A stretch of DNA of 24,000 nucleotides from Acidobacteriota bacterium (GCA_022566415.1 JADFIY010000003.1:14470-38469); one strand, 5' to 3'; shown: positions 2,377 to 23,010, numbered from the stretch's first letter. Notes: a model not told the origin generated them from the letters alone. A program made the numbers and translations.

Positions 2377-2619
2377 TTAAGAGCGCGCACCGATAGATGA
2401 CGGGCGGTCTCGACAGAAGCGGAGCCATTTTTCCCGCTCTTGGCTTCGGGCCGCTCGGGCCACGGCTCCGCGAATGGCCGTGCCGACAGCGACCGGATCG
2501 TGCCCTATTTGCGGAGCGCCATTTTCCCGCTCTTGGCTACGGGCCACATCGGGCCACGGCTCCGCGAATGGCCGTGCCGACAGCGACCGGATCGTGCCCT
2601 ATTTGCGGAGCCTCTAAGG
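2377..2619 (+). repeat. Long form of the structured repeat: outer terminus plus two tandem units of 92 and 94 nt. It is the left inverted arm of the cassette.
   Basis: GCGGAGC recurs at 2419, 2511 and 2605. The units share CATTTTCCCGCTCTTGGCT.CGGGCC....CGGGCCACGGCTCCGCGAATGGCCGTGCCGACAGCGACCGGATCGTGCCCTATTTGCGGAGC. Positions 2377-2530 match the reverse complement of 3991-4146. Confidence 0.9.
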
Positions 2620-2716
2620 AGATATATCGGGATCGATGGCGGCGCCAGCGGCTTCTCTGGCAGCTGTCTTCCGTCCACGCCGGTCCCGGTGCGTACCATG
2701 CGCGCCGGAGGTAGCG

Positions 2717-3211
2717 ATGGACGCTGCGGCGGTGAACCGGGTGATGTGGGCGATCCCCAACGTGCTGTGCCTCGTCGGGTCGCGTGCCGGTGACGAGCGC
2801 AACGGGATGACCACTTCGTGGGTCACCCAGGTGGCGATGGAGCCGGTCCTGGTCGCCATTTCGGTGGATTCGACGGCGGTGACCAACCGGCTCATCCGCG
2901 ACGGAGGGTCGTTCAGTGTCAACTTGTGGGATCGCGAGGACACCAAGGTGTTCCGGCGCTTCTCCAAGCCGGCGGAGGATGACGGCGCTGCGCTCAACGG
3001 CTATTCGGTCAGGAACGGAGTCACTGGTGTCCCGATCTTCGACGACGCCATCGCCTGGTTCGAGTGCGCGGTCCGTGACACGATCGACGTTGGTACCCAC
3101 GATCTCTTCCTCGGCGAGGTCATCGACGTCGGGATCCGAGACGGAGCCGAGGAGCAAGTTGCCAGGATGGAAGACACGCGGATGAAGTACGGCGGCGTTC
3201 GCCGTCATTGA
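2717..3211 (+). CDS. Flavin reductase-like (FMN-binding split-barrel) domain protein
   Basis: The track ORF is 2636..3211. I moved the start to ATG 2717, which has GGAGG at 2707-2711 and a 5-nt spacer. The motif region NGMTTSWVTQVAMEPVLVAISV and the ~165-aa size are typical of the HpaC/NtaB-type flavin reductase family. Confidence 0.85.
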   Translation: MDAAAVNRVMWAIPNVLCLVGSRAGDERNGMTTSWVTQVAMEPVLVAISVDSTAVTNRLIRDGGSFSVNLWDREDTKVFRRFSKPAEDDGAALNGYSVRNGVTGVPIFDDAIAWFECAVRDTIDVGTHDLFLGEVIDVGIRDGAEEQVARMEDTRMKYGGVRRH

Positions 3212-3221
3212 GGGGGTTGCC

Positions 3222-3989
3222 ATGGAGATCCGCTTCGATGGGATTGTCGCGCTCGTCACCGGAGGAACGCGCGGTATCGGAGAGGCCACCGCCAAGGAGT
3301 TCCTTTCCTCCGGTGCGGCAGGGGTTGCGATCACGTCTCGCCGTCAGGAGAACCTGGATGCCGTGGCGGAGAGGCTCGATGCCGGTAACCGACTGATGTT
3401 GCTCGAGGCCAGGGCGGACGACGACGCCGCCGCCGCAGCCGCGGTCGGAGCGGTCGTCGCCCAGTTCGGTCGTCTCGATGTGCTTGTCAACAACGCGGGC
3501 ACCAATCCGGCGGTGGGCGCTATCGCCGACGTCGATCTTGGCGCGCTGGACAAGACCTGGGCGGTAAACCAGCGGGGGCCGCTGGTCTGGTCGCGCGAGG
3601 CGTGGAACCAGACGATGAAGGCCGAGGGCGGCTCGATCGTCAACGTGGCCTCGGTGGGTGGGATTCGCCCGGGGATGGCGCTCGGTGCCTACAACGTGTC
3701 GAAGGCGGCGCTGATCTACCTGACCAAGCAAATGGCCTACGAGATGGCCCCCGGCGTGCGGGTGAACGCAGTGGCGCCGTCGGTCGTTCGCACCCGGCTG
3801 TCGGCAATGTTGTGGGAGGGTCTCGAGGATCACACCGCGGCAGCCCACCCCCTGAAGCGGATCGGGGAGCCAGAGGATGTGGCCCGCGCCATCGCCTTTC
3901 TCGCCTCGGATGCCGCGTCGTGGATCACGGGAGTGATCCTTCCCGTCGACGGGGGAGCGTTGGGGGCGACCGCAGCGGCCGGGATGTGA
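3222..3989 (+). CDS. Short-chain dehydrogenase/reductase (SDR) family oxidoreductase
   Basis: 255 aa. Cofactor motif TGGTRGIGEA, NNAG, catalytic YNVSKAAL (YxxxK). GAGGGGG lies upstream of the ATG, which is 10 nt after the flavin reductase stop. Confidence 0.92.
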   Translation: MEIRFDGIVALVTGGTRGIGEATAKEFLSSGAAGVAITSRRQENLDAVAERLDAGNRLMLLEARADDDAAAAAAVGAVVAQFGRLDVLVNNAGTNPAVGAIADVDLGALDKTWAVNQRGPLVWSREAWNQTMKAEGGSIVNVASVGGIRPGMALGAYNVSKAALIYLTKQMAYEMAPGVRVNAVAPSVVRTRLSAMLWEGLEDHTAAAHPLKRIGEPEDVARAIAFLASDAASWITGVILPVDGGALGATAAAGM

Positions 3990-11034: not shown

Positions 11035-11607
11035 ATGGAGCTTCGCCAACAACATCGCAGCGGAGATGAGCGGGTCTTCGACAGGTTCGTTCGTGATCAC
11101 GCCAGGCCCGTCCTCGCCTACTGCTTGCGCCGCAGCACCCACGCCGACGCCCACGAGGCCGCCTCGGAGGTGTTTTCCATCGCGTGGCGCAAGTTCAGTG
11201 ATGTGCCCGACGGTGAGGCGGGTCTGTACTGGCTGTTTGGTGTCGCCAGGCGGGTGCTGTCCAACCAGCAGCGAGGACGACTGCGGCGGCAGAAAATGAC
11301 CGACCGCGTCGGGTCGCTGGCCGAGGCTCCAGCACCGAGTGCGGAGACCGTGGTGTTGAGAAGTGTGTACAACCAGGAAGTCATCGACGCGCTCACCAGC
11401 CTCAACCCCAGGGACCAGGAGCTGGTGGCACTCATCGTGTGGGATGACATTCCGCGTCAAGAGGTCTCCAACCTTTTCGGTATTTCACTCACCGCCGTGA
11501 ACAAGCGATATCAGCGGGCGCTGCGTCGCTTGGAACATGCGTTGAGCGGCGGCGACGAATACGGCAGCACGACCCACCCGATTGCAGAGGAAGGAGGTGT
11601 CGCATGA
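11035..11607 (+). CDS. ECF-type sigma-70 family RNA polymerase sigma factor
   Basis: Region 2 (FDRFVRDHARPVLAYCLRR...EVFSIAWRKF) and region 4 HTH (IPRQEVSNLFGISLTAVNKRYQRALRRLEH). The track ORF starts at GTG 10981. I prefer ATG 11035, which is preceded by GGGAG; ATG 10999 is also possible. Confidence 0.88.
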   Translation: MELRQQHRSGDERVFDRFVRDHARPVLAYCLRRSTHADAHEAASEVFSIAWRKFSDVPDGEAGLYWLFGVARRVLSNQQRGRLRRQKMTDRVGSLAEAPAPSAETVVLRSVYNQEVIDALTSLNPRDQELVALIVWDDIPRQEVSNLFGISLTAVNKRYQRALRRLEHALSGGDEYGSTTHPIAEEGGVA

Positions 11608-12278
11608 ATGCTATCGAGCGACTCGAACGGGCCAACCCCGTGCCAGATGAAGACAGGTTGTTAGCCGCTCCCGGCGCCATGGATGCCTTCGTCTCCTCCG
11701 TGAAGGAAAGGAGCGGGATCGTGAAGAAGACTGAGAGGAAAGGTTCCGGTGTAGAGGATCGACCACCAATCGAGGTGCCGACAGACGCAGCACCGATTGA
11801 GGGGTCGAGAAGGCGTTTCGGCCTGGTCGCGGCCGCCGCCGTGGTTGTGTTGGTGATCGGAGCGGCGGCAGCGATCTTGACCCTGAGCGGTGACGGGGGG
11901 GACGACGTCGTTACCGCCTCACCTACGACGCCAGGCCCCATCACGTCCTTTGACGACATCGCCGGGACGATCTACGAGCGCGTAGATACCGGTGCTCCAC
12001 TGACCTTGCTCTACTTCGTTGAGGATGGGACCTTTCACGGCTCGACGAACCGAGAATTGATCGTGGACCGCCCGTTTGTCGTTTTTCAGACCAGTTTTGA
12101 GGAGACGAAGATCTTGATAACGACGGCCAATTTGTTCTGCGACCAACCCGATCAGGGCGGCACCTACGAGATCCTCGTCCTGGAGAACGGCAACCTGATG
12201 TTTGTGGCCGTCGACGAGGATTCGTGCGGGCTGCGTTCGGGCAACTTTTCGAACACTGAATGGGTGCCCGTTCCGTAG
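11604..12278 (+). CDS. Single-pass membrane protein, putative anti-sigma factor partner
   Basis: ATGA overlap with the sigma gene (11604-11607) and GAAGGAGG upstream. One TM segment (FGLVAAAAVVVLVIGAAAAILTL). N-terminal LERANPVPD-type segment, and a ~130-aa extracytoplasmic domain with two Cys. Confidence 0.7.
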   Translation: MNAIERLERANPVPDEDRLLAAPGAMDAFVSSVKERSGIVKKTERKGSGVEDRPPIEVPTDAAPIEGSRRRFGLVAAAAVVVLVIGAAAAILTLSGDGGDDVVTASPTTPGPITSFDDIAGTIYERVDTGAPLTLLYFVEDGTFHGSTNRELIVDRPFVVFQTSFEETKILITTANLFCDQPDQGGTYEILVLENGNLMFVAVDEDSCGLRSGNFSNTEWVPVP

Positions 12279-12416: not shown

Positions 12417-12451
12417 TCTCGACTCTCGACTTTCGACTCTCGACTCTCCTC
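12417..12451. repeat. Heptanucleotide tandem array (TCTCGAC)n, which reads (GTCGAGA)n on the minus strand
   Basis: TCTCGAC TCTCGAC TTTCGAC TCTCGAC TCTCCTC. The last unit overlaps the stop codon (12450-12452) of the BtpA-family gene. Confidence 0.95.
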
Positions 12452-13214
12452 AGCCCGCGGCTCGGATGATCGCCGCGGCGAGGTCGGCGTCAACCGGGGC
12501 ATCGATCCGTCCCGCCGGTTTGGTCGCGGTGCCGACGATCACCCCGTCGGCGATCTTCAGGGTGGTGGAGACCGAATCGGCGGTGACGCCCGACCCGACG
12601 TAGACGGGGAGGCTGGTGGCGTCGGCGACGATGGCGAGCTCGTCGATGTCGGCGGCAGCGCCGGTGGCCGCCCCGGACACGATGATCGCATCGGCTCCTC
12701 CGCGCTCGGCAAGGTCCCGGGTCGCCGCAGCGAGCGCAACGCCGGCCGGGGGGGTGGCATGTTTGACGAACACGTCGGCCATAACGGCCACGTCTGGGCA
12801 GATGCCGGCACGGAGACGGGCGACTTCGGCAGCCTTGCCGGTGAGCTCCCCCTGATCGGTGAACATCGACCCGGAGAGCACGTTGACCCTGATGAAGGTG
12901 GCGCCGGTCGCGGCCGCAATCGACAGGGCGGCGAGGGCATCGTTGCGCAGCACGTTGACGCCGATGGGGAGCCCGCTGGCGGTGACCGCATCCACCGCTT
13001 TGGTCATCGCCGCCACCGTGGATTTGGGCACGTCGTCTGCGAAGAACGGTGCATCTCCGAAGTTCTCCACCATCACACCATCGAAGCCCGCCGCAGCGAG
13101 AGTCGTGGCGTCGATGACTGCGGCGTCGATGACCGCCTGGAGGTCACCGTCGTAGTCGGGTGCCCCGGGAAGGGGTCGAAGGTGGACCATCCCGATGACT
13201 CTGAGCGGGTCCAC
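12450..13214 (-). CDS. BtpA/SgcQ family TIM-barrel protein
   Basis: 254 aa. The N-terminal VIGMVHLRPLPGAPDY matches the BtpA-family signature (IGvvHL.PLPGsP). Gly/Ala-rich barrel strands. GTG start 6 nt after the upstream stop. Confidence 0.85.
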   Translation of the reverse strand: MDPLRVIGMVHLRPLPGAPDYDGDLQAVIDAAVIDATTLAAAGFDGVMVENFGDAPFFADDVPKSTVAAMTKAVDAVTASGLPIGVNVLRNDALAALSIAAATGATFIRVNVLSGSMFTDQGELTGKAAEVARLRAGICPDVAVMADVFVKHATPPAGVALAAATRDLAERGGADAIIVSGAATGAAADIDELAIVADATSLPVYVGSGVTADSVSTTLKIADGVIVGTATKPAGRIDAPVDADLAAAIIRAAG

Positions 13215-13220
13215 CAGGGC

Positions 13221-14003
13221 TCAGTAGGCCCTGGCGATCTCGAGCGCCCGCTCCGCGTGGTCGCCGACCGCCTTCAATCCGGTATCGGCTGGGTCCTGGC
13301 GCTGGACGACGACCCTGCACCAGTCGCCGGCCATGCCGCGGATGACCTGATCGGTGTCCTCCGGGCCGAACCGCCATGCCTGGTACTTGGGCCCCATCAC
13401 CTCGACCCTCACCCCCTGCGCCGGGTACGTCTCACCCACCTGGCGGTAGGAGAAGGGCAGGCTCTTCTGCCCGAACCATGCGATGTGGCGGAGGCGGAGA
13501 GTATCCGCCAGCGGATCCTCTTCCTCTTCTTCGAGGTCCTGCTCGGGAATCGGGAGAATTCTGCCCAAGATGGCGACCTTCACGTCCAGACCATGGGCCC
13601 ACGTCTCCATGAGGCGCATGGTGGCGAAGCTTTGCGCACTCATATCGCCATACAGCCAGGGGACCCTGTCGCCTGCGCTCATCCTGGACAGGGCATCGAC
13701 GACGTCGGCGCGGCCGTGGCGCCACCATTCGATGACCTCCTGATGACGCTGCGGACGTCCCAATGCAACCCCGACCGCGGTCCACTCGTCGATGTCGGTG
13801 ACGTTCTCGGCGTCGATCCGTTCCCTCCCCCGCTCCAGGACCTCAGCGGCCAGTCCCTCCACGTGGGCGAGATGGCTCACCTGGTCCTTGATCGTCCACC
13901 CTTCCGCCGGCGTCTTCTTCTTCCACTCACGGTCGGCGAGTCCCTGGAGAAATTGGTCCAGGTGCTGCTCTTCGGCCACGAGATCCGACAGAATCTCTCT
14001 CAT
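13221..14003 (-). CDS. Maleylpyruvate isomerase-family mycothiol-dependent enzyme / DinB-fold metal-binding protein (TIGR03084-like)
   Basis: 260 aa. The N-terminal LSDLVAEEQHLDQFLQGL...EGWTIKDQVSHLAH pattern is typical of the MDMPI_N/DinB fold. Confidence 0.75.
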   Translation of the reverse strand: MREILSDLVAEEQHLDQFLQGLADREWKKKTPAEGWTIKDQVSHLAHVEGLAAEVLERGRERIDAENVTDIDEWTAVGVALGRPQRHQEVIEWWRHGRADVVDALSRMSAGDRVPWLYGDMSAQSFATMRLMETWAHGLDVKVAILGRILPIPEQDLEEEEEDPLADTLRLRHIAWFGQKSLPFSYRQVGETYPAQGVRVEVMGPKYQAWRFGPEDTDQVIRGMAGDWCRVVVQRQDPADTGLKAVGDHAERALEIARAY

Positions 14004-14013
14004 CGGCGTGATT

Positions 14014-15096
14014 CTACAGGGGTTCGTGCGTTGAACTGATCTGAGCCCGCTGATCGATCACGCTCGCATTGATGCGGTCGATGAGCACCCTGAGCCTGCC
14101 GAACTGGCGACGATCGAAACTCAAACGCAGCCGCGCCAGGTCGACGTTGTCATCGGTGGCGATCTCCGGCGCGGTTGCGGTGATGGTGCGGATTTCGCCG
14201 TGGGTGAGGATGTCCGAGAAGTCCTCGTTGAGCGACCCGACCAGCTCGCTGGATGGCTCGCTCTTCAGGCGGAGGATGAGGTCGCCATCGACGAATCGCT
14301 GCGAGTGGTACGAGGCGTAGAAGTCGAGGATCTCGTTGATCGCAACGTCGACGTCTTCGGTGACGCGATACAGGTTGAGGTCGTCGGGTGTGATCAGCTC
14401 CTGTTCGACGAGGGTGTCGACGAATCGCTGCCAACCGCTCCAGTACCCGGTCCCCGGAGCCTCGAGCATCGCGATCGGGTGGATGTCGGACTTCCCGGTT
14501 TGGATCAGCGTCAACAACTCGAAGGTCTCATCCTGGGTCCCGAAGCCGCCGGGAAAGAGAACGAACGCGTGCGATTCCTTGACGAACGCCAGCTTGCGGG
14601 TGAAGAAGTACTTGTAGTTGATCAGGCGGCTCTCGTGCACGTATGGGTTGGCGTCGGATTCGAACGGGAGTCGGATATTCACCCCGAACGAGTCATCGCT
14701 TCCTGCGCCGAGGTTGCCGGCTTCCATGATTCCCGGGCCGGCTCCGGTTACGACCATCCAGCGGTGCTGGTCGACCATTCGGGAGGCGAACTCGGCGGCG
14801 GCCTGGTAGTTGGGGTCGTCTGGGGGGGTGCGCGCCGATCCGTACATGGTGACCTTTGGCACGTCCCGGTACTTCTGAAAGATGGCAAACGAATACCGCA
14901 TCTCCTTGAGGGCTGCGTTCATGAGTTTCACGTCGCCGCGGCTGGCGTCGTCGCGCACCAGTTTGAGCGCGGTGACGATCATCTCGCGAATGAGCTCCTC
15001 GTCGTGCTCGTGGTCCGGGTGGCTGGCCGCGACATCGGAGACCAGCGCGCTGATCCGATCGTCGATGGCGGCGTCGCCGATGCGGTATGAGCGCAT
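14014..15096 (-). CDS. LOG-family (TIGR00730) protein with N- and C-terminal extensions; PpnN-like nucleotide 5'-monophosphate nucleosidase candidate
   Basis: 360 aa. GAGPGIMEAGNLGA and PGGFGTQDE (the LOG motif PGGxGTxxE). The core is flanked by ~70 aa at the N terminus and ~110 aa at the C terminus. Confidence 0.85.
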   Translation of the reverse strand: MRSYRIGDAAIDDRISALVSDVAASHPDHEHDEELIREMIVTALKLVRDDASRGDVKLMNAALKEMRYSFAIFQKYRDVPKVTMYGSARTPPDDPNYQAAAEFASRMVDQHRWMVVTGAGPGIMEAGNLGAGSDDSFGVNIRLPFESDANPYVHESRLINYKYFFTRKLAFVKESHAFVLFPGGFGTQDETFELLTLIQTGKSDIHPIAMLEAPGTGYWSGWQRFVDTLVEQELITPDDLNLYRVTEDVDVAINEILDFYASYHSQRFVDGDLILRLKSEPSSELVGSLNEDFSDILTHGEIRTITATAPEIATDDNVDLARLRLSFDRRQFGRLRVLIDRINASVIDQRAQISSTHEPL

Positions 15097-15111
15097 GTGG
15101 TGAACCTAGCC

Positions 15112-15597
15112 TCAGTCCCTGTAGTTGACGTATTGCAAGGGCAGGGCGTAGTCCAGCCCCTTCAGCTCGGCGATCACCGCTTGCAACTCGTCCCGCTTCT
15201 TTCCTTGTACTCGCAACTGATCGCCCTGGATGTGAACCTGAACCTTGCTACCCATGTCCCGAATGTGTTTCGACAGATCCCGTGCCGCATCCTGCGAGAT
15301 GCCGTGGCTCAGCGTGTACTCGGCGCGGGAGCGCCCGCCGGCGGCCGGTTTGATCTCGCCCCCTGCAAGCGACTTCAACGAAACCTTGCGCCGGACGAGC
15401 TTGGTCTTGAGCACGTCGATGGCTGCCTCGACCCTTTGGTCGGACGCCGACTCGACCGTTATTCCTTCGTCGGTCAGGGCCACGGTTGTGTTCGTTCCTT
15501 TGAAGTCGTACCGGTTGACGATCTCACGCATCGACTGGTCGACTGCGTTGCGAACCTCCTGGTTATCGACCCGTGAAACGACATCGAATGAAGGCAT
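15112..15597 (-). CDS. yajQ: YajQ family nucleotide / cyclic-di-GMP-binding protein (UPF0234)
   Basis: 161 aa. MPSFDVVSRVDNQEVRNAVDQSMREIVNRYDFKG and the C-terminal LPLQYVNYRD match the YajQ family. GGGAGG lies 4 nt before the ATG. Confidence 0.92.
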   Translation of the reverse strand: MPSFDVVSRVDNQEVRNAVDQSMREIVNRYDFKGTNTTVALTDEGITVESASDQRVEAAIDVLKTKLVRRKVSLKSLAGGEIKPAAGGRSRAEYTLSHGISQDAARDLSKHIRDMGSKVQVHIQGDQLRVQGKKRDELQAVIAELKGLDYALPLQYVNYRD

Positions 15598-15612
15598 AGC
15601 CCCTCCCGTTGG

Positions 15613-16605
15613 TTAGCCGGGGAACGGTAGCCCCGCCGGGCCCTTGCGGACCACGGCGGCCCACACCGTGTCGTAGTGGTCCCTGTCGAACGCATCGATA
15701 TGGGGGAGGACGAACTCCTCCCAGGCGCTCCGTAACGGATCCTCGGCCTCGGCGTACATATCGAGACCGGCGGGGAGGCGGTCGAGGACCGTTCGAAGAC
15801 TCATCGGCGTTTCCACCCTGGTGGTAGCGTCGCCGGCTATGAACGACTCGTTGATCTCGACGGCGAGCTTCGGGATCATCTCGACGAGCTCCTTGCGCAT
15901 GTCCGGATGGCGGCGCAGCAGCATCAGCTGAAGCTCATCCTCTGACGGGAATTCCTTCTCCCAGATGATCCATCGGTCGGCGAAGGCCTTGTTCAGGGTC
16001 TGGGTCCCGGCATAGTCCCTCAGGTCAGTCGGGTTGAACGTTCCGAACACGCGCACATCATCGCGGAGGCGAACCATCTCCCCGGTCGGGAGCTCGAGCG
16101 CCTGGTGGCGATCGAGGAGCCCATGCAACGCGAACAGGGTCTCGGCTCCTGCGGCATTCAACTCCGAAAGGTTCACCAACGCCGGTCCGCGAATAGCTCT
16201 GGTGATGTCGCCATCCTCCCACCGGCTCTCGGTGCCACCCTTGCCATCACCGTGCAGCTTCACCGACCCGATGAGGGTGATGTCTCGCACTTCACCGGTC
16301 AGGGGGATGCGGTAGTAGGGGAGCCTGGTGAGCGCGGCGAATTGCTCGAGGTCGTGGTCCTTTCCTGTGCCCATGTGACCTCGCAGCGCAAGGTGGAGTG
16401 GGATCCCCTCGAAGCGGCTCTTTCTGGTCTGTTCGAGCATGGCGAGGCGGTACAGCATGCCGATGTCGACGTAGTAGGGATCGGGCTCCGGGATGTGGTC
16501 GTGGCGCAGATCGGCGTCTGGGACGTCTTTTGGAATCGTCACCGTTTCCAGCTCAATTGGTTTCCCCACGCCTGCGGGATCCTCGAAGGTGACGGTGTCG
16601 GCCAT
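15613..16605 (-). CDS. AAA+ ATPase, CobS/MoxR (AAA_5) type
   Basis: P-loop GHMGTGKD (16357-16380), Walker B region ALVNLSELNA (16153-16182), and the CobS-like FGTFNPTDLRDYAGTQTLNKAFADRW. The track ORF starts at GTG 16662 and overlaps the upstream gene. I prefer ATG 16605, with AGGAG 4 nt upstream and 8 nt after the upstream stop. Confidence 0.85.
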   Translation of the reverse strand: MADTVTFEDPAGVGKPIELETVTIPKDVPDADLRHDHIPEPDPYYVDIGMLYRLAMLEQTRKSRFEGIPLHLALRGHMGTGKDHDLEQFAALTRLPYYRIPLTGEVRDITLIGSVKLHGDGKGGTESRWEDGDITRAIRGPALVNLSELNAAGAETLFALHGLLDRHQALELPTGEMVRLRDDVRVFGTFNPTDLRDYAGTQTLNKAFADRWIIWEKEFPSEDELQLMLLRRHPDMRKELVEMIPKLAVEINESFIAGDATTRVETPMSLRTVLDRLPAGLDMYAEAEDPLRSAWEEFVLPHIDAFDRDHYDTVWAAVVRKGPAGLPFPG

Positions 16606-16613
16606 GGTGCTCC

Positions 16614-18842
16614 TCAGTTGGCGTATGAGTTGTCTGTGATCTGTCGGGTTGCGTCCATCCACCAGCTACCGCCGCCGCCTGCTGTGATCGAGCGGAACAG
16701 CGACGCTCGCACCCCGTCGATCATCGCCGTGGCGAGCGCATCCGGCTGCTGGACGACAGCGTTGCGTTGATAGGCGGCCTGCACGGTGTCGTCCCCGATC
16801 CCTATCCCGAGCACGGTCGTGCCGCCGCGATCGATCGACGATGTGGTCGCGGCGAGGGCGGCGACCGAGCCGCGGGTCATCCCGTCGGCGAGCACGACGA
16901 TGATTCGATGCGACACGTTGCGCGACGAGAGCCGCTCTGCAGCGTAGGCGAGGTTGAACTCATCGACGTTGGCGGCCTTGTCGAACATCGCCAACGGAGG
17001 GGCGACGAGTGGGTTCCTGCGGGTCTCTCTGACGGCTTCCCGCGGTGTGGCCGCCATCCAGAACAAGCCGGCGAGGACCTCTTCAGCGCCGCGCCATCGG
17101 TCGCTGAACCGCTTGACGAGATAGTGGTTGACGGTGAGGGTGAGTCGCTCCGCGGAACCACCCTGGGTTCGCCGGAGCGCCCCGGTCGTTCTTCCCCGGC
17201 GCTCGACATACGAGCGCTGTGTGTCGTCGGGCGCCGCAACGAACCCGCGGTTGAAGATGGCCACCTCGAACTCGATCTGTAGCTCGTCGGCGAGCCGCGC
17301 CAGCGTCCAGGCGCCGAGGATGGCGGCGGCGAGCGCCCACGGCTTCTTGCGCCCATTGGGCAGCTCGCGGGCCTGAAGCATCGATGCCGAGCCGTCTACG
17401 AGCAGGCTGACTCCGTAGGACCGCCGGTTGGGCAGATCGCGCCGCTCAAACATTCGCTCGTAGAAGCCACCGGCCAGGAGGAGCGGCGTGTACGGAGAGA
17501 GGTCACCGGCATCGAACCCGGTGCGTAGTCCCCTGCGCTGGTTGGCGAGAAACAACGGATAGAGCGCTCCGGACACCCGGCGCTGGGCAACCCCCCACTC
17601 ATCGGCTGCGGCCAGCAGCATCTTGCGACCCTGGGGACCAAACCGGCTGAAGGAGTACGGGAGGTCGGTGACGATGAGTTTGCCGGATTGACCCGTTGGC
17701 AGGTACACCGTTGGGCTGGTCGACACCTTCATCAGCTGATCGGTTGCAGGATCGCCTGCCTGATCCGCCTCCCCATGACGACCGTGCTCGGCAGAAACCG
17801 CCTGCGCCGCCTGGCGGGTCTGCTCGTACGAATCCTGGTCTGCGAGCGGCGGGGTGACCACCCTCACCGCGTCGACACTCTCGACGATTGACGACTGATC
17901 TGCCTCGCGGCCCTCGCTCCGGCCGATGGGGGCGTCGGCTGCTGCCCCCTCGGTGAGGATGCCGTGCATACGCGCCACCTCGATCAGCTGGAGCGCGACC
18001 CCACCGACCGTCCACGGATCTTCCAACTCGGGCATCGGGTCGAGGAAGGGCATGGCGTCGTCGATGGCCAGGGCAACGTGCGGAGCAGCCATCTTCTGCA
18101 ACGCCTCCCGATCGAGATAGTCGCCGACGAGCAGGAAACAGGCCAGGGCGAATTGGCCGAGCGGCCTTGCTTTGGCGAACCCACCGGGGACCGCCGCCCG
18201 GTACAGGTCGGAGAGCACAGACCGGGCTCCAGGAAAGGGCGCCATGTGCTTGCGTTCCTGGCGAGCGTCCTCGATGGCGAAGAACATCGCCTGGGCGGCC
18301 GGACCGGCCACCGTGCTCAGCGCATCGAGGAGCGATACGGCCGACACCGTCGGCACGTCGTCATAGCGGTACACCTGATCGTCGTCAGCGGAGGTGGGGT
18401 CAGGCTCGGTCCACTCGTAGGTGGTCAGCTCGGCGAGCGGAGGCGGTTCTGCGGTGTTCTCCAGCGACTCTCGGTGCGCCATCCACGAGTCGGGGATCGG
18501 ACGCTCCTCTTCGAAATCGGTGGCGATCAGGTGCACCGCCTCGTGCAGCGCCGAGGTGAGTGCAACCTCGGTTGGGGTCACCGGAGCCGCCCGTGCGTAC
18601 GCGGCCTGAAACACTCCGGGGTCGATCACGATCTCATCGGGTGAAGCGGACGCTTGCGAACCGAGTCGCACCGTGAGCTCATCGTTGCCTGCGATCGATC
18701 GAGCGAAACGGGTCACCGCCGGTGCGACACGCTGGTAGCGGGCGACAACGGCCTCGATCACCCGATCTTCGGGTGGAAGGACCTCGCGGAGAACTGACTC
18801 ATCGTGGGCGCGCATGAACAGACCATTGTAAGGGCCTGTCAA
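16614..18842 (-). CDS. CobT/NorD-like protein with a C-terminal von Willebrand factor A (VWA) domain and an N-terminal HExxH motif
   Basis: 742 aa. MIDAS-like DGSAS (17382-17396) within SYGVSLLVDGSASM, and a late VWA strand IIVVLADG. CobT-like AIEDARQERKHMAPFPGARSVLSDLY. HEAVH at 18531-18545. The start is uncertain: TTG 18842 or ATG 18815. Confidence 0.8.
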   Translation of the reverse strand: MTGPYNGLFMRAHDESVLREVLPPEDRVIEAVVARYQRVAPAVTRFARSIAGNDELTVRLGSQASASPDEIVIDPGVFQAAYARAAPVTPTEVALTSALHEAVHLIATDFEEERPIPDSWMAHRESLENTAEPPPLAELTTYEWTEPDPTSADDDQVYRYDDVPTVSAVSLLDALSTVAGPAAQAMFFAIEDARQERKHMAPFPGARSVLSDLYRAAVPGGFAKARPLGQFALACFLLVGDYLDREALQKMAAPHVALAIDDAMPFLDPMPELEDPWTVGGVALQLIEVARMHGILTEGAAADAPIGRSEGREADQSSIVESVDAVRVVTPPLADQDSYEQTRQAAQAVSAEHGRHGEADQAGDPATDQLMKVSTSPTVYLPTGQSGKLIVTDLPYSFSRFGPQGRKMLLAAADEWGVAQRRVSGALYPLFLANQRRGLRTGFDAGDLSPYTPLLLAGGFYERMFERRDLPNRRSYGVSLLVDGSASMLQARELPNGRKKPWALAAAILGAWTLARLADELQIEFEVAIFNRGFVAAPDDTQRSYVERRGRTTGALRRTQGGSAERLTLTVNHYLVKRFSDRWRGAEEVLAGLFWMAATPREAVRETRRNPLVAPPLAMFDKAANVDEFNLAYAAERLSSRNVSHRIIVVLADGMTRGSVAALAATTSSIDRGGTTVLGIGIGDDTVQAAYQRNAVVQQPDALATAMIDGVRASLFRSITAGGGGSWWMDATRQITDNSYAN

Positions 18843-19367: not shown

Positions 19368-19556
19368 TCACTTCTTGGTCCAGAAGGTGTCGCCGCAGTT
19401 AGGGCACTCCAGTTCCACGTCACCACCAGCCCACCAGCTTCCTTTCCGACTCCTCCCCGTCTCGCGGTAGGCAGTGACCGCCACCGGCTTCCCGCAGGCC
19501 TCGCATGGTTTGGTAGTCAGGTCCTGCCACCGGTCCCGCAGCCAATCCAGCATCAC
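19368..19556 (-). CDS. Small zinc-ribbon protein (two CxxC pairs), hypothetical
   Basis: 62-aa ORF MMLDWLRDRWQDLTTKPCEACGKP...ELECPNCGDTFWTKK, with CxxC-N26-CxxC. GTG 19556 is followed by ATG 19553. No clear SD. Confidence 0.45.
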   Translation of the reverse strand: MMLDWLRDRWQDLTTKPCEACGKPVAVTAYRETGRSRKGSWWAGGDVELECPNCGDTFWTKK

Positions 19557-19761: not shown

Positions 19762-20532
19762 TCAGAACCTGAAGTGCTTGACCCCGAGCCCCTCTTCTGC
19801 GATTCGGGTCACCGAATCGATGCCGATCTCGAGGTGAACGTCAGACCATGTCGCGGTCACCTTGCGATCGCTCTCTTGAGTCTTGATGCCTTCTGGTCGT
19901 AGCGGAACATCGGAGACGAGCAAGAGGGCACCGCGGGCAATGCCATTGGCATGACCGACGATGAAGATCGTCGCGGTCTCCATGTCGACTGCGATCGCGG
20001 TCAGCGAGCGCATCTTGTCCAAGAAGCTCAGATCGTGCTCCCAGACGCGGCGGTTCGTCGTATAGACGACGCCGGTCCGATATTCGAGGTGCTTCTTGTC
20101 TACCTCGTCGGACACGATCTTGTGGAGCTCGAACGAAGGCAAGGCCGGAACCGCAGGCGGGAAGTACTCGTCCGACGTCCCCTCACCCCGAATTGCGGCA
20201 ATCGGGAGGATGAAGTGTCCGATCTCCGAGGAGTGCTTCAGGCCGCCGCATTTGCCGAGAAACAGCACGCTCTTGGGATCGACCGCGATGAGGAGATCCA
20301 TCACAGTTGCCGCGTTGGCGGTGCCGATGCCGAAGTTGATGATCGAGATTCCGTCGTCGCTCGTCGCCGACTGCATCGGGAGTCCATTGCCGGCGACGTC
20401 GCAACCAAATCGGTCGGCGAATCGTCCGACGTAGTCGGCAAAGTTCGTCAGCAGGATGTGCGTTCCGAAACCCTCGAGGGGCATTCCCGTGTAACGCGGT
20501 AGCCAATCTCGGGCTATGTCCATTTTTTCCAT
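19762..20532 (-). CDS. AMP nucleosidase-like protein, short form (PNP/UDP phosphorylase-fold catalytic domain only)
   Basis: 256 aa. RYTGMPLEGFGTHILLTNFADYV resembles the start of the Amn catalytic domain. NFGIGTANAA and AVDMETA are PNP_UDP_1-fold motifs. Confidence 0.7.
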   Translation of the reverse strand: MEKMDIARDWLPRYTGMPLEGFGTHILLTNFADYVGRFADRFGCDVAGNGLPMQSATSDDGISIINFGIGTANAATVMDLLIAVDPKSVLFLGKCGGLKHSSEIGHFILPIAAIRGEGTSDEYFPPAVPALPSFELHKIVSDEVDKKHLEYRTGVVYTTNRRVWEHDLSFLDKMRSLTAIAVDMETATIFIVGHANGIARGALLLVSDVPLRPEGIKTQESDRKVTATWSDVHLEIGIDSVTRIAEEGLGVKHFRF

Positions 20533-20616
20533 TGCGCTGCGACTTTAGGGTCGTAACCCAAGCCAGCAACATGCTGCGTCATAGCCGTGCGCGTTGAAGT
20601 GCGTAGACCCATGGGT

Positions 20617-20651
20617 TCGTAATACGTTGTACGTGATACGGAATACGGCCC
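20617..20651. repeat. Degenerate heptanucleotide array (ACGNNAT)n
   Basis: TCGTAAT ACGTTGT ACGTGAT ACGGAAT ACGGCCC; ends 16 nt before the arfB ATG. Related to the ACGTATT array at 23803. Confidence 0.7.
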
Positions 20652-20667
20652 TGCATACTGTTGGCTC

Positions 20668-21084
20668 ATGGACGACCTGCGCGTCTCGGACGAGGTCACG
20701 ATTCCCGCCGCCGAACTGGAATGGACGTTTCTTCCCAGCGGAGGGCCGGGCGGGCAGCATGCGAATCGGGCGTCTACCAAGGTCGTGCTGCGCTTCGATG
20801 CCGCGGCCTCCGCTGCCTTCGACGAGGCGACCCGCCGGCTTGTGATCGACCGGTTGCCGGAGCCCGTGGTCGCGGTCACCGTCGACGAGACGCGGTCGCA
20901 GTGGAGGAATCGACGGATCGCCAGACAACGGCTCCGCGAGCGGCTTATTGCCCTGCTGGCGCCAGATCCCCCGCAGCGCAAACAGACGCGCCCGAGCCGG
21001 TCGGCGAAGCAACGGAGGCTCGACACCAAACGAGCGCGTTCTCAGCAGAAGTCGCTCCGCAGACCGCCCGCCGTAGAAGACTGA
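20668..21084 (+). CDS. arfB: Alternative ribosome-rescue factor ArfB (YaeJ-type peptidyl-tRNA hydrolase)
   Basis: 138 aa. GGQ motif in SGGPGGQHANRASTKV, and a basic C-terminal tail (KQTRPSRSAKQRRLDTKRARSQQKSLRR). Confidence 0.92.
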   Translation: MDDLRVSDEVTIPAAELEWTFLPSGGPGGQHANRASTKVVLRFDAAASAAFDEATRRLVIDRLPEPVVAVTVDETRSQWRNRRIARQRLRERLIALLAPDPPQRKQTRPSRSAKQRRLDTKRARSQQKSLRRPPAVED

Positions 21085-21087
21085 GCG

Positions 21088-21732
21088 ATGTCGATCATCC
21101 CGTTCTACGGCGTCGATCGTCCCGATCTGTTCGCCATCGAGCGCGCGGCAATGGACCGGCCGGGCCGCGTCATCGAGCGGCTCGACCGGTTGCTCCCCGC
21201 GGGGACGATCGCCGACATCGGGGCAGGCGACGGCTTCACTGCCGAGCGGCTCGCCAACCCGCAGCGCAGGATCGTCGCCGTTGAGCCCGCCAGGGCCATG
21301 ATCGACCGCAGCCGCCACCGGACCTGGGTACAGGCCGATGCCGAGGCGCTTCCGTTTGGTAATGGTTCCCTCGACGCTGCATACGCCACCTGGGCATACT
21401 TCTTCTCGCGAGGGCCGCTCGATCCCACTCCCGGCCTCGAGGAACTCCACCGCACGGTGAAGCCGGGTGGCACCATTGTCATCGCCGACAACGCCGGGGA
21501 CGACGAGTTCTGTGCGTTTTCGCAGCACGACATCTCGGCAGATCCCAGGTTTTGGCGAGGGCGCGGTTTCGGCATCGAGATCGTCGACACCGTATTTGCC
21601 TTCGAGACCGCAGCGGACGCCTGGCGGCTGCTCGATTTCTATTTCGATGGGATCGGGTCGGCGCCACCGACGCAGCTCACCTATCGGGTTGCTCTTTTCA
21701 TCGGGGTGAGCCAGGGCCCCCCGCGCTACTGA
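21088..21732 (+). CDS. Class I SAM-dependent methyltransferase
   Basis: 214 aa. Motif I IADIGAGDGFTAERLA and a post-I acidic residue (VAVEP); VKPGGTIVIAD. The ATG lies 3 nt after the arfB stop. Confidence 0.85.
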   Translation: MSIIPFYGVDRPDLFAIERAAMDRPGRVIERLDRLLPAGTIADIGAGDGFTAERLANPQRRIVAVEPARAMIDRSRHRTWVQADAEALPFGNGSLDAAYATWAYFFSRGPLDPTPGLEELHRTVKPGGTIVIADNAGDDEFCAFSQHDISADPRFWRGRGFGIEIVDTVFAFETAADAWRLLDFYFDGIGSAPPTQLTYRVALFIGVSQGPPRY

Positions 21733-21759
21733 GCGACCGACCTCCCTAACATCGCGGCC

Positions 21760-23010
21760 ATGCATTACGACTTCACCACGCTTCCCAATGGCCTGCGCAT
21801 CATCTCTCAAGACATGCCGGCGCTTCGATCGCTTGCCGTCGGCGTGTGGGTCGACACCGGCAGCCGCGACGAAACACCGGTCGAAGCGGGAGCCAGCCAC
21901 TTCCTCGAGCACCTCTTGTTCAAAGGATCAGAAGAGTGGCCGGCGGAGCGCATCAGCGAAACCTTCGATGCCATGGGGGCACGCCATAATGCCTTCACCT
22001 CCAAGGAATACACCGCCTACTGGGCCCGGATGCGGGATGTCGACCTACCCACCGGCATGGAGATCCTCGCCGAGATGGTACAGAAGCCGGCCTTCCGCCA
22101 AGAGGAGATCGATCTCGAGCGTGGCGTCGTGCTCGAAGAGATCAACATGAACGAGGACGATCCCCCCGACGTGGCGCACGAGCAGTTCGTTGAGACTTTG
22201 TGGGGATCGCACCCGTTGGCGCCGCCCATTCTCGGGACAAAGGATTCCATAACCGAGATGACCCGCGACACCGTGAGTGGGTACTGGGCGAGGCGCTACA
22301 CGCCGCGCTCGTGCGTGATTGCTGTCACCGGGCGCGTCGACCATGACGACCTGGTGGCCCTCGTCGAGAAGCATTGGAGTACGTGGGAGGGAGAAGCGAT
22401 CGACCGACCGCTCAGCACGCCGGACTACGAGTCGGGCGTCGGTGTGGTGCGGCGCGACACCGAACAGGCACACCTGGTGTTTGGCGGTCCCGGCCTCAAG
22501 CGCGACGACGAGCGGCGATTCGCTCTCATCGTCGCCGACCATGTCCTTGGCGGAGGGATGTCGAGCCGTCTGTTTCGAGAGATCCGCGAAAATCGCGGCC
22601 TCGCCTATGCGGTTCACTCATTCCGGAGCCCATTTGCCGACAGCGGATCCAATGCGGTGTACGTCGGCACGACGCCGGATCAGACCGCCGAAGTGCTGAA
22701 ACTCGTGCGCGGAGAGCTCGACAAAATGATGGACAGCGGCATCACCGAGGATGAGCTGGCGCGGGCGCGGGGAAACGTGCAGGGGTCGCTTGCAATCTCT
22801 CTCGAAGATGCAGATAGCCGGATGAACCGGCTCGGTCGCAACGAGATCACCGGTCTCGAGCATCTCTCCGTCGACGAGATCGTCGCCAGGGTCGATGCGG
22901 TCACCCTCGATGATGTGGTCGAGGCGGCCGGTGCTGCGTACGGAGGACCGTATGTGCTCGGCGCCACCGGTCCGTTCGATGTCGAGGATCTCAACGAGTT
23001 CGTCCAGTGA
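21760..23010 (+). CDS. M16 (pitrilysin) family zinc metallopeptidase
   Basis: 416 aa. Inverted zinc motif HFLEHLLFKG (HxxEH). The N-terminal TLPNGLRII is typical of the family. Confidence 0.92.
   Translation: MHYDFTTLPNGLRIISQDMPALRSLAVGVWVDTGSRDETPVEAGASHFLEHLLFKGSEEWPAERISETFDAMGARHNAFTSKEYTAYWARMRDVDLPTGMEILAEMVQKPAFRQEEIDLERGVVLEEINMNEDDPPDVAHEQFVETLWGSHPLAPPILGTKDSITEMTRDTVSGYWARRYTPRSCVIAVTGRVDHDDLVALVEKHWSTWEGEAIDRPLSTPDYESGVGVVRRDTEQAHLVFGGPGLKRDDERRFALIVADHVLGGGMSSRLFREIRENRGLAYAVHSFRSPFADSGSNAVYVGTTPDQTAEVLKLVRGELDKMMDSGITEDELARARGNVQGSLAISLEDADSRMNRLGRNEITGLEHLSVDEIVARVDAVTLDDVVEAAGAAYGGPYVLGATGPFDVEDLNEFVQ

Follow-up and report, generated by a model that had tools for sequence, protein, structure and literature searches.

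The 24,000-nt stretch of Acidobacteriota bacterium DNA analysed here, termed the window (GCA_022566415.1, JADFIY010000003.1:14470-38469), includes a 6.4-kb cluster of six co-directional, minus-strand genes for a CobT-like VWA adaptor, a CobS/MoxR-type AAA+ ATPase and proteins of the YajQ, LOG, DinB-fold and BtpA families. The cluster is likely a compacted stretch of conserved Acidimicrobiia chromosomal backbone that holds three separable units rather than one module. These units would be: (i) two obligately paired genes for a motor and adaptor of the CobS/CobT (MoxR-VWA) kind, (ii) a free-standing YajQ gene, whose product is predicted to bind nucleotides or cyclic di-GMP (c-di-GMP), and (iii) a LOG, DinB-fold and BtpA set, which probably forms a small operon for a putative small-molecule reaction. 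The proposed backbone would run, with interruptions, from DapB and an M16 peptidase through the VWA-AAA pair, YajQ and the LOG-DinB-BtpA set to an Lhr helicase.

Layout of the cluster

The six genes of the cluster, listed from the last to the first in the direction of transcription, are:

12450-13214, minus strand: BtpA/SgcQ-family TIM-barrel protein, 254 aa (Pfam BtpA, 8.7e-81)
13221-14003, minus strand: DinB-fold, MDMPI_N/TIGR03084-like metal-binding protein, 260 aa (MDMPI_N, 1.5e-25)
14014-15096, minus strand: type II LOG-like phosphoribohydrolase with N- and C-terminal extensions, 360 aa (Pfam Lysine_decarbox, 3.3e-26)
15112-15597, minus strand: YajQ-family (DUF520) nucleotide/c-di-GMP-binding protein, 161 aa (NF003819, 197.4 bits)
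15613-16605, minus strand: CobS/MoxR-type AAA+ ATPase (AAA_5), 330 aa (Pfam AAA_5, 8.5e-13), adjoining the VWA gene in 79 of 79 loci
16614-18815, minus strand: CobT-like adaptor, 733 aa (open reading frame call, homologue alignments and a weak CobT_C match)

The tight packing reported in the preliminary description of this DNA is confirmed by the coordinates of the called open reading frames (16614-18842, 15613-16662, 15112-15597, 14014-15096, 13221-14003 and 12450-13214), which leave gaps of 8, 15, 15, 10 and 6 nt when the ATPase starts at ATG 16605. The family labels given there to all six genes likewise hold in Pfam and NCBIfam profile searches. ATG 16605 is preceded, 6 nt upstream, by a Shine-Dalgarno-like GAGGAG and yields an ATPase of 330 aa, equal in length to the called homologue in locus L002. 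For the VWA protein, the most likely start is the in-frame ATG 18815, not TTG 18842, because all of its homologues, when aligned, begin with MR..D.

A consensus scan detects no promoter or terminator signals above chance inside the cluster. Because the intervening DNA is missing between them, the six genes are probably co-transcribed in this genome and in its three nearest relatives. The single transcription unit suggested earlier is thus plausible here, where gaps are just 6-15 nt, yet a six-gene unit is not kept in other relatives. Such co-transcription would be incidental, and the arrangement is not maintained by selection.

Synteny among the Acidimicrobiia

The comparison is based on 87 loci, all of one class (Acidimicrobiia). 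A scan of one genome per GTDB species yielded 206 relatives of the VWA protein, of which the top 80 were used (VWA identity of 60-95% in tblastn), each with flanks of up to 10 kb; the genome scan and both homologue searches cover the best 80-120 matches listed, which confines the loci to this class. Homologues of all window genes were placed in the loci of the relatives by tblastn, and seven annotated neighbourhoods (L001-L003 and L084-L087) were sampled. Close relatives of the VWA protein are abundant, all in Acidimicrobiia-type metagenome-assembled genomes (MAGs). The DNA of the closest (L004) is 91% identical to the window over 7 kb. Three MAGs with an Acidimicrobiia-type locus (L004, L006 and L047; 64-95% VWA identity) are titled 'uncultured Kiloniellales bacterium', after an alphaproteobacterial order, and these bins are probably mislabelled or contaminated.

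Conservation of gene order differs among the junctions of the cluster. All 79 loci scored have the VWA and AAA+ genes side by side on one strand, and LOG adjoins DinB in 44 of 48, with BtpA following DinB in 33 of 41 and absent in eight. Of the 73 loci evaluable for YajQ, 36 have it directly behind the AAA+ gene; in the others it is co-directional but at a distance above 120 nt (16 loci), on the opposite strand (10) or not found (11). For LOG, a direct junction with the cluster gene before it occurs in 6 of 52 loci and a distance above 600 nt in 40. Three loci show neither LOG nor DinB nor BtpA across 8 kb or more. An unbroken run of six is seen in just 3 of the 30 loci that hold every member, namely those of the three nearest relatives, L004, L005 and L006 (VWA identity of 95, 89 and 82%). 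Elsewhere the blocks are split: an opposite-strand MIP aquaporin gene lies between them in L001, while 5 kb separates them in L002, L003 and L087, with genes for a methyltransferase, an Na/H exchanger, AsnA and an HAD hydrolase, several on the opposite strand.

Upstream genes that are unrelated to the cluster serve as a control. Within 10 kb of the VWA gene, the M16 peptidase is found in 40 of 42 loci and DapB in 39 of 42, compared to 35 of 39 for YajQ, 36 of 39 for LOG, 35 of 39 for DinB and 27 of 39 for BtpA downstream. The synteny of cluster members with the VWA gene does not exceed that of M16 and DapB; therefore, the co-location reflects a conserved chromosomal backbone and not a selected six-gene unit. 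Tight packing in one genome can in this way mimic a new six-gene module, where comparison of 80 species reveals backbone order and local loss of spacers.

A distant branch of the VWA family extends the comparison. P0130 represents a low-GC (32.5%) marine Acidimicrobiaceae lineage in which the order is DapB, the VWA-AAA pair, two small opposite-strand genes and DinB-BtpA. The VWA and AAA+ genes overlap by 1 nt in L084-L086. YajQ and LOG are not found within 10 kb in the low-GC loci. Compared to the window, the ATPase of this lineage is 56% identical and the adaptor only 28-30%, and the low-GC adaptor is without the acidic insert of approximately 80 residues (window residues ~110-160). The adaptor evolves much faster than the motor. 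DinB remains paired with BtpA even at this distance, and the VWA-AAA and DinB-BtpA pairs lie 0.75 kb apart.

The preliminary description had tentatively read the six genes as one nucleotide-sensing or nucleotide-degrading module, in which the AAA+/VWA pair assembles or activates the YajQ, LOG, DinB-fold and BtpA proteins. Gaps of 6-15 nt leave no room for internal promoters, and the null result of the consensus scan agrees with such a module, as do the presence of all six genes within 10 kb in most relatives and the assignment of YajQ and LOG to nucleotide-related families. The comparison, however, leaves only VWA-AAA and LOG-DinB (usually with BtpA) as tight groupings, and the module fails the refuting condition set in that description. 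Roughly half of the loci have YajQ displaced, inverted or not at all, LOG is mostly remote, BtpA and at times the whole LOG-DinB-BtpA set are missing, unrelated and opposite-strand genes split the blocks, the low-GC lineage has neither YajQ nor LOG nearby, and M16 and DapB are equally syntenic. PADLOC models gave no matches at E <= 0.01 to the six proteins and two upstream neighbours, in keeping with the earlier remark that the set resembles no named pathway or defence system. The single-module hypothesis is largely refuted by synteny and is now highly improbable.

The CobS/CobT-like pair

The adaptor consists of an N-terminal helical domain, a disordered acidic insert and linker, and a C-terminal VWA domain. 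The residues that are invariant across both Acidimicrobiia subfamilies include the HExxH motif (H91, E92, H95) together with E187, and a complete MIDAS (metal ion-dependent adhesion site; D474-x-S476-x-S478 ... D644, T647). Profile searches recover little of this protein. The sole Pfam match is a weak one to CobT_C (E 0.01), the NCBIfam CobT model has no match, Pfam at E <= 10 detects no family in the N-terminal 460 aa of the VWA protein or its low-GC homologue, and a PDB profile search with the VWA alignment finds nothing at E <= 0.1. Structural models are more informative: the modelled VWA domain most resembles the NorD of NorQD complexes (E 8e-7), and a second model, of the N-terminal 410 residues with a deeper alignment (predicted local distance difference test score, pLDDT, 71; predicted template modelling score 0.70), matches CobT-like VWA proteins of phages and archaeal viruses in BFVD (Gordonia phage GMA7 at E 7e-4, HHTV-2 and others). 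The HExxH and (L/I)EDAxxE motifs also align with the 'peptidase' of Synechococcus phage S-SSM5 and the CobT of Roseobacter phage CRP-810. CobT is described as a peptidase-M48C-like N-domain, a linker of approximately 90 residues and a C-terminal VWA domain with a MIDAS (bioRxiv 10.64898/2026.07.21.739949), and the secondary structure, pLDDT profile, BFVD matches and motifs of the adaptor all conform to this architecture.

The ATPase has one NCBIfam match, to CobS (TIGR01650), at 49.3 bits against an equivalog cut-off of 558. Its PDB matches are the AAA domains of midasin, then CobS, which is a clear second, CbbQ and NorQ. The Walker motifs are unusual. Walker A reads GHMGTGKD (residues 76-83) in 86 of 87 loci and Walker B reads LVNLSELN (residues 143-150), with hhNLSELN in all 86 loci where the stretch is readable, whereas the aligned positions in midasin and the phage CobS-like proteins are GKT and DE. 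The ATPase departs from canonical Walker A (GKS/T) and Walker B (hhhhDE) and retains the catalytic Glu, a pattern that resembles a reciprocal exchange of the two Mg-site residues.

As in MoxR-class pairs, an AAA_5-type ATPase gene adjoins a VWA gene with an intact MIDAS. Based on the AAA_5 and PDB matches, the NorD-like VWA domain, the phage-CobT-like N-domain and motifs, and the CobT layout, the pair is assigned to a divergent CobS/CobT type of motor and adaptor. By NCBIfam score, it is not an orthologue of the cobaltochelatase subunits. The pair also appears restricted to the Acidimicrobiia. An exhaustive HMMER search gave 199 matches to the VWA family in 1.84 billion cluster representatives, made up of one full-length 50% cluster, many fragments and the single distant full-length P0130 (30% identity), with the remaining matches covering the C-terminal VWA tail only; tblastn of the VWA protein against phages and plasmids gave weak C-terminal VWA matches only.

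If the pair works like CobST, NorQD and CbbQO, its AAA+ ring would use ATP to move the adaptor, and the MIDAS face of the adaptor would bind an acidic residue of a putative client protein, such that the client is remodelled or metalated. Several proposals for this client can be weighed. A genuine cobaltochelatase motor, with a CobN-type subunit encoded elsewhere and cobalt insertion in aerobic cobalamin synthesis as its task, would account for CobS as the sole NCBIfam match of the ATPase and a clear PDB match, as well as for the CobT domain layout and motifs of the adaptor. Phage cobST pairs, moreover, are often without an adjacent cobN and are thought to use the CobN of the host (PMC8651126). 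This assignment is, however, at odds with the low TIGR01650 score, the silent CobT model and the Walker motifs, which are unlike those of phage CobS-like proteins. Neither CobN nor any cobalamin gene is detected in the window or among the genes called in the seven neighbourhoods sampled. Streamlined marine lineages often do not have cobalamin synthesis, and the pair is kept in the low-GC marine lineage, which is taken to be streamlined. A cobaltochelatase role is, overall, unlikely. It is rather unlikely, too, that the pair is a non-chelatase remodelling machine with a swapped Mg-site ATPase (GKD/SE) whose client is the nearby DinB-fold protein, BtpA or a CobN-unrelated target; if true, such a machine would give CobST-type motors a new class of client and offer a clue to the function of the widespread cobST pairs of phages.

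YajQ, LOG, DinB-fold and BtpA proteins

The YajQ protein scores 197.4 bits over its full length against the NF003819 equivalog cut-off of 146 and matches XC_3703 (2.5e-34) and YajQ in the PDB. Its position invites the proposal that the true unit is VWA-AAA-YajQ, with YajQ as a nucleotide-responsive regulator or client of the motor. In the 36 loci where YajQ follows the AAA+ gene the gap is 11-61 nt, and these loci include every member of the 75-77%-identity clade whose contig extends far enough. The 10 inverted, 16 displaced and 11 missing copies and the absence of YajQ from the low-GC loci speak against this unit; YajQ is, in addition, a widespread stand-alone gene. A three-gene unit of this kind seems unlikely.

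The LOG protein scores 95.8 bits against a TIGR00730 cut-off of 96.35, includes PGGFGTQDE (the PGGxGTxxE motif) and has 5wq3 as its best PDB match (2.4e-40). The DinB-fold protein exceeds the cut-off of the TIGR03083 domain (104 bits against 50) and falls below that of TIGR03084 (210.9 against 247.95). BtpA likewise exceeds TIGR00259 (264 bits against 153) and falls short of the photosystem I (PSI)-biogenesis equivalog NF045918 (247.6 against 400 bits). A literature search on the co-occurrence of BtpA, DinB and LOG and on BtpA biochemistry gave nothing useful.

The pair might instead mature or metalate the neighbouring DinB-fold metal-binding protein or BtpA. This proposal would account for the class-wide proximity, within a few kb, of VWA-AAA and DinB-BtpA, with the two pairs 0.75 kb apart even at 28-30% VWA identity and DinB within 10 kb of the VWA gene in 35 of 39 loci; TIGR03084-type proteins are annotated as metal-binding, and MoxR-VWA pairs typically serve in metal insertion (PMC7159879). 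By contrast, three loci show no DinB or BtpA across 8 kb or more, the VWA family with its 199 matches is much narrower in distribution than the DinB-fold and BtpA families, and the upstream backbone genes are equally conserved. Maturation of either neighbour by the pair is decidedly unlikely.

The favoured explanation, a compacted backbone stretch with three separable units, faces several findings that weigh against it. Three separate sub-clades (L006, L043 and L061) have YajQ and LOG tightly joined and, thus, the contiguity of the six genes may be ancestral, which would allow a past functional link. Because all 87 loci are from one class, loose co-location within approximately 10 kb, which persists down to a VWA identity of 28-30%, is formally indistinguishable from weak functional coupling. 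For unit (i), the gene context points to no particular effector. The full-length AlphaFold model of the adaptor is poor (pLDDT 54), with the VWA domain alone usable, and Foldseek comparison of the N-domain model to the PDB gives no significant match and no M48 match, such that a zincin/M48 fold is not confirmed.

Non-coding features and flanking genes

Three non-coding features border the cluster:

12417-12448: heptamer microsatellite, (GAGAGTC)n on the coding strand (Tandem Repeats Finder period 7, 4.6 copies), abutting the BtpA stop codon
18823-18842, minus strand: conserved TTGACAGnCCnnTACAATGG motif, found in the window, L004 and L006, that ends 8 nt before the VWA start codon
18861-19360: lineage-specific non-coding insertion of approximately 500 bp with 3-4 copies of a C/G-rich element of approximately 30 nt, absent in L004

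The motif upstream of the VWA gene reads TTGACAGGCCCTTACAATGG and may be a candidate promoter or operator of this gene. Its TACAAT hexamer ends 10 nt before the ATG, a position that suggests a leaderless or very short-leader transcript, and the TTGACA-to-TACAAT spacing is 6 nt, unlike that of a standard -35/-10 pair.

The boundaries described earlier for the cluster hold in part. The repeats of the 525-bp upstream region are real, but the region is mostly the 500-bp insertion and, thus, not conserved: in L004, the closest relative, the stop codon of the zinc-ribbon gene lies 50 nt from the VWA ATG. Three copies of the ~30-nt element occur in the upstream stretch, a number reproduced by no shuffle. 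On the minus strand, the element consists of CCCCTCCCC, a short GC hairpin with a stem that varies between copies, and CTCCCCC. It is similar to repetitive extragenic palindromic (REP) elements or miniature inverted-repeat transposable elements (MITEs), and the region has no credible match to Rfam at E <= 1. Downstream, the heptamer array is real as well, but it is a variable microsatellite that relatives have in other copy numbers or not at all. L004 has approximately eight copies, with GAGTCGC and GAGTCGA mixed, and L005 has none. The hairpin reported at this site folds no better than shuffled sequences (z = -0.54). Rfam at the gathering threshold gives nothing credible in the whole window.

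The neighbours of the cluster in the window are ordinary chromosomal genes, including those of an Lhr helicase, an ECF sigma factor, an ABC transporter, an SDR protein and the M16 peptidase. Upstream of the cluster are a zinc-ribbon gene (19368-19556, minus strand; 62 aa, CxxC...CxxC), which is common to L004, and a PNP_UDP_1 gene (19762-20532, minus strand) for a short AMP-nucleosidase-like protein. The latter was considered as part of a nucleotide module and rejected, as none of the 42 relatives with at least 8 kb of upstream sequence carries PNP_UDP_1 upstream of the VWA gene. Three sizeable open reading frames have no Pfam family even at permissive thresholds: 20545-21912 (minus strand, 455 aa), 2537-3334 (minus strand, 265 aa) and 11604-12278 (plus strand, 224 aa). 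The last of these follows and overlaps the ECF sigma factor gene and may encode the anti-sigma factor of that protein.

Comparison with known systems

The interest that remains in the cluster is modest and lies in a lineage-restricted CobS/CobT-like pair with invariant, unusual Walker A and B motifs and in a conserved LOG-DinB-BtpA trio. The pair could inform the function of cobST pairs, which are core genes of many marine phages. Such pairs are widespread in tailed viruses, where the cobT of cyanophages is often mis-annotated as a peptidase (PMC8651126).

The LOG protein is comparable to type II LOG enzymes, exemplified by the Cg1261-type cytokinin riboside 5'-monophosphate phosphoribohydrolase of Corynebacterium glutamicum, in its PDB matches (5wq3, 5zi9) and PGGxGTxxE motif. 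It differs in its length of 360 aa, with approximately 100 extra C-terminal residues, and in a score just under the TIGR00730 cut-off.

The pair shares with NorQ/NorD and CbbQ/CbbO the placement of an ATPase gene next to that of a large adaptor with a C-terminal VWA domain; the VWA domain is closest to NorD, and the ATPase matches NorQ and CbbQ. A similar action would be expected by analogy, in which an ATP-driven adaptor remodels or metalates a client. Unlike NorQD and CbbQO, the pair has no nitric-oxide reductase or Rubisco genes nearby, and its N-domain is CobT-like, not NorD- or CbbO-like.

CobS/CobT and the viral cobST of tailed phages and archaeal viruses provide the closest parallel. 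In both, an AAA_5-type ATPase gene of approximately 330 aa lies beside an adaptor gene of 650-740 aa, and the adaptor, like CobT, combines an HExxH...EDAxxE N-domain with a disordered linker and, at the C-terminus, a VWA domain whose MIDAS is DxSxS. The adaptor gene also precedes the ATPase gene in Synechococcus phage S-SSM5, whose adaptor bears the annotation 'peptidase'. By contrast with CobS/CobT, identity is approximately 25%, the CobS score is 49 against 558 bits and the CobT model is unmatched; the pair has no CobN or cobalamin genes nearby and is a chromosomal backbone pair of Acidimicrobiia only. Where the phage CobS-like proteins and midasin have GKT and DE, the ATPase of the pair has GKD and SE.

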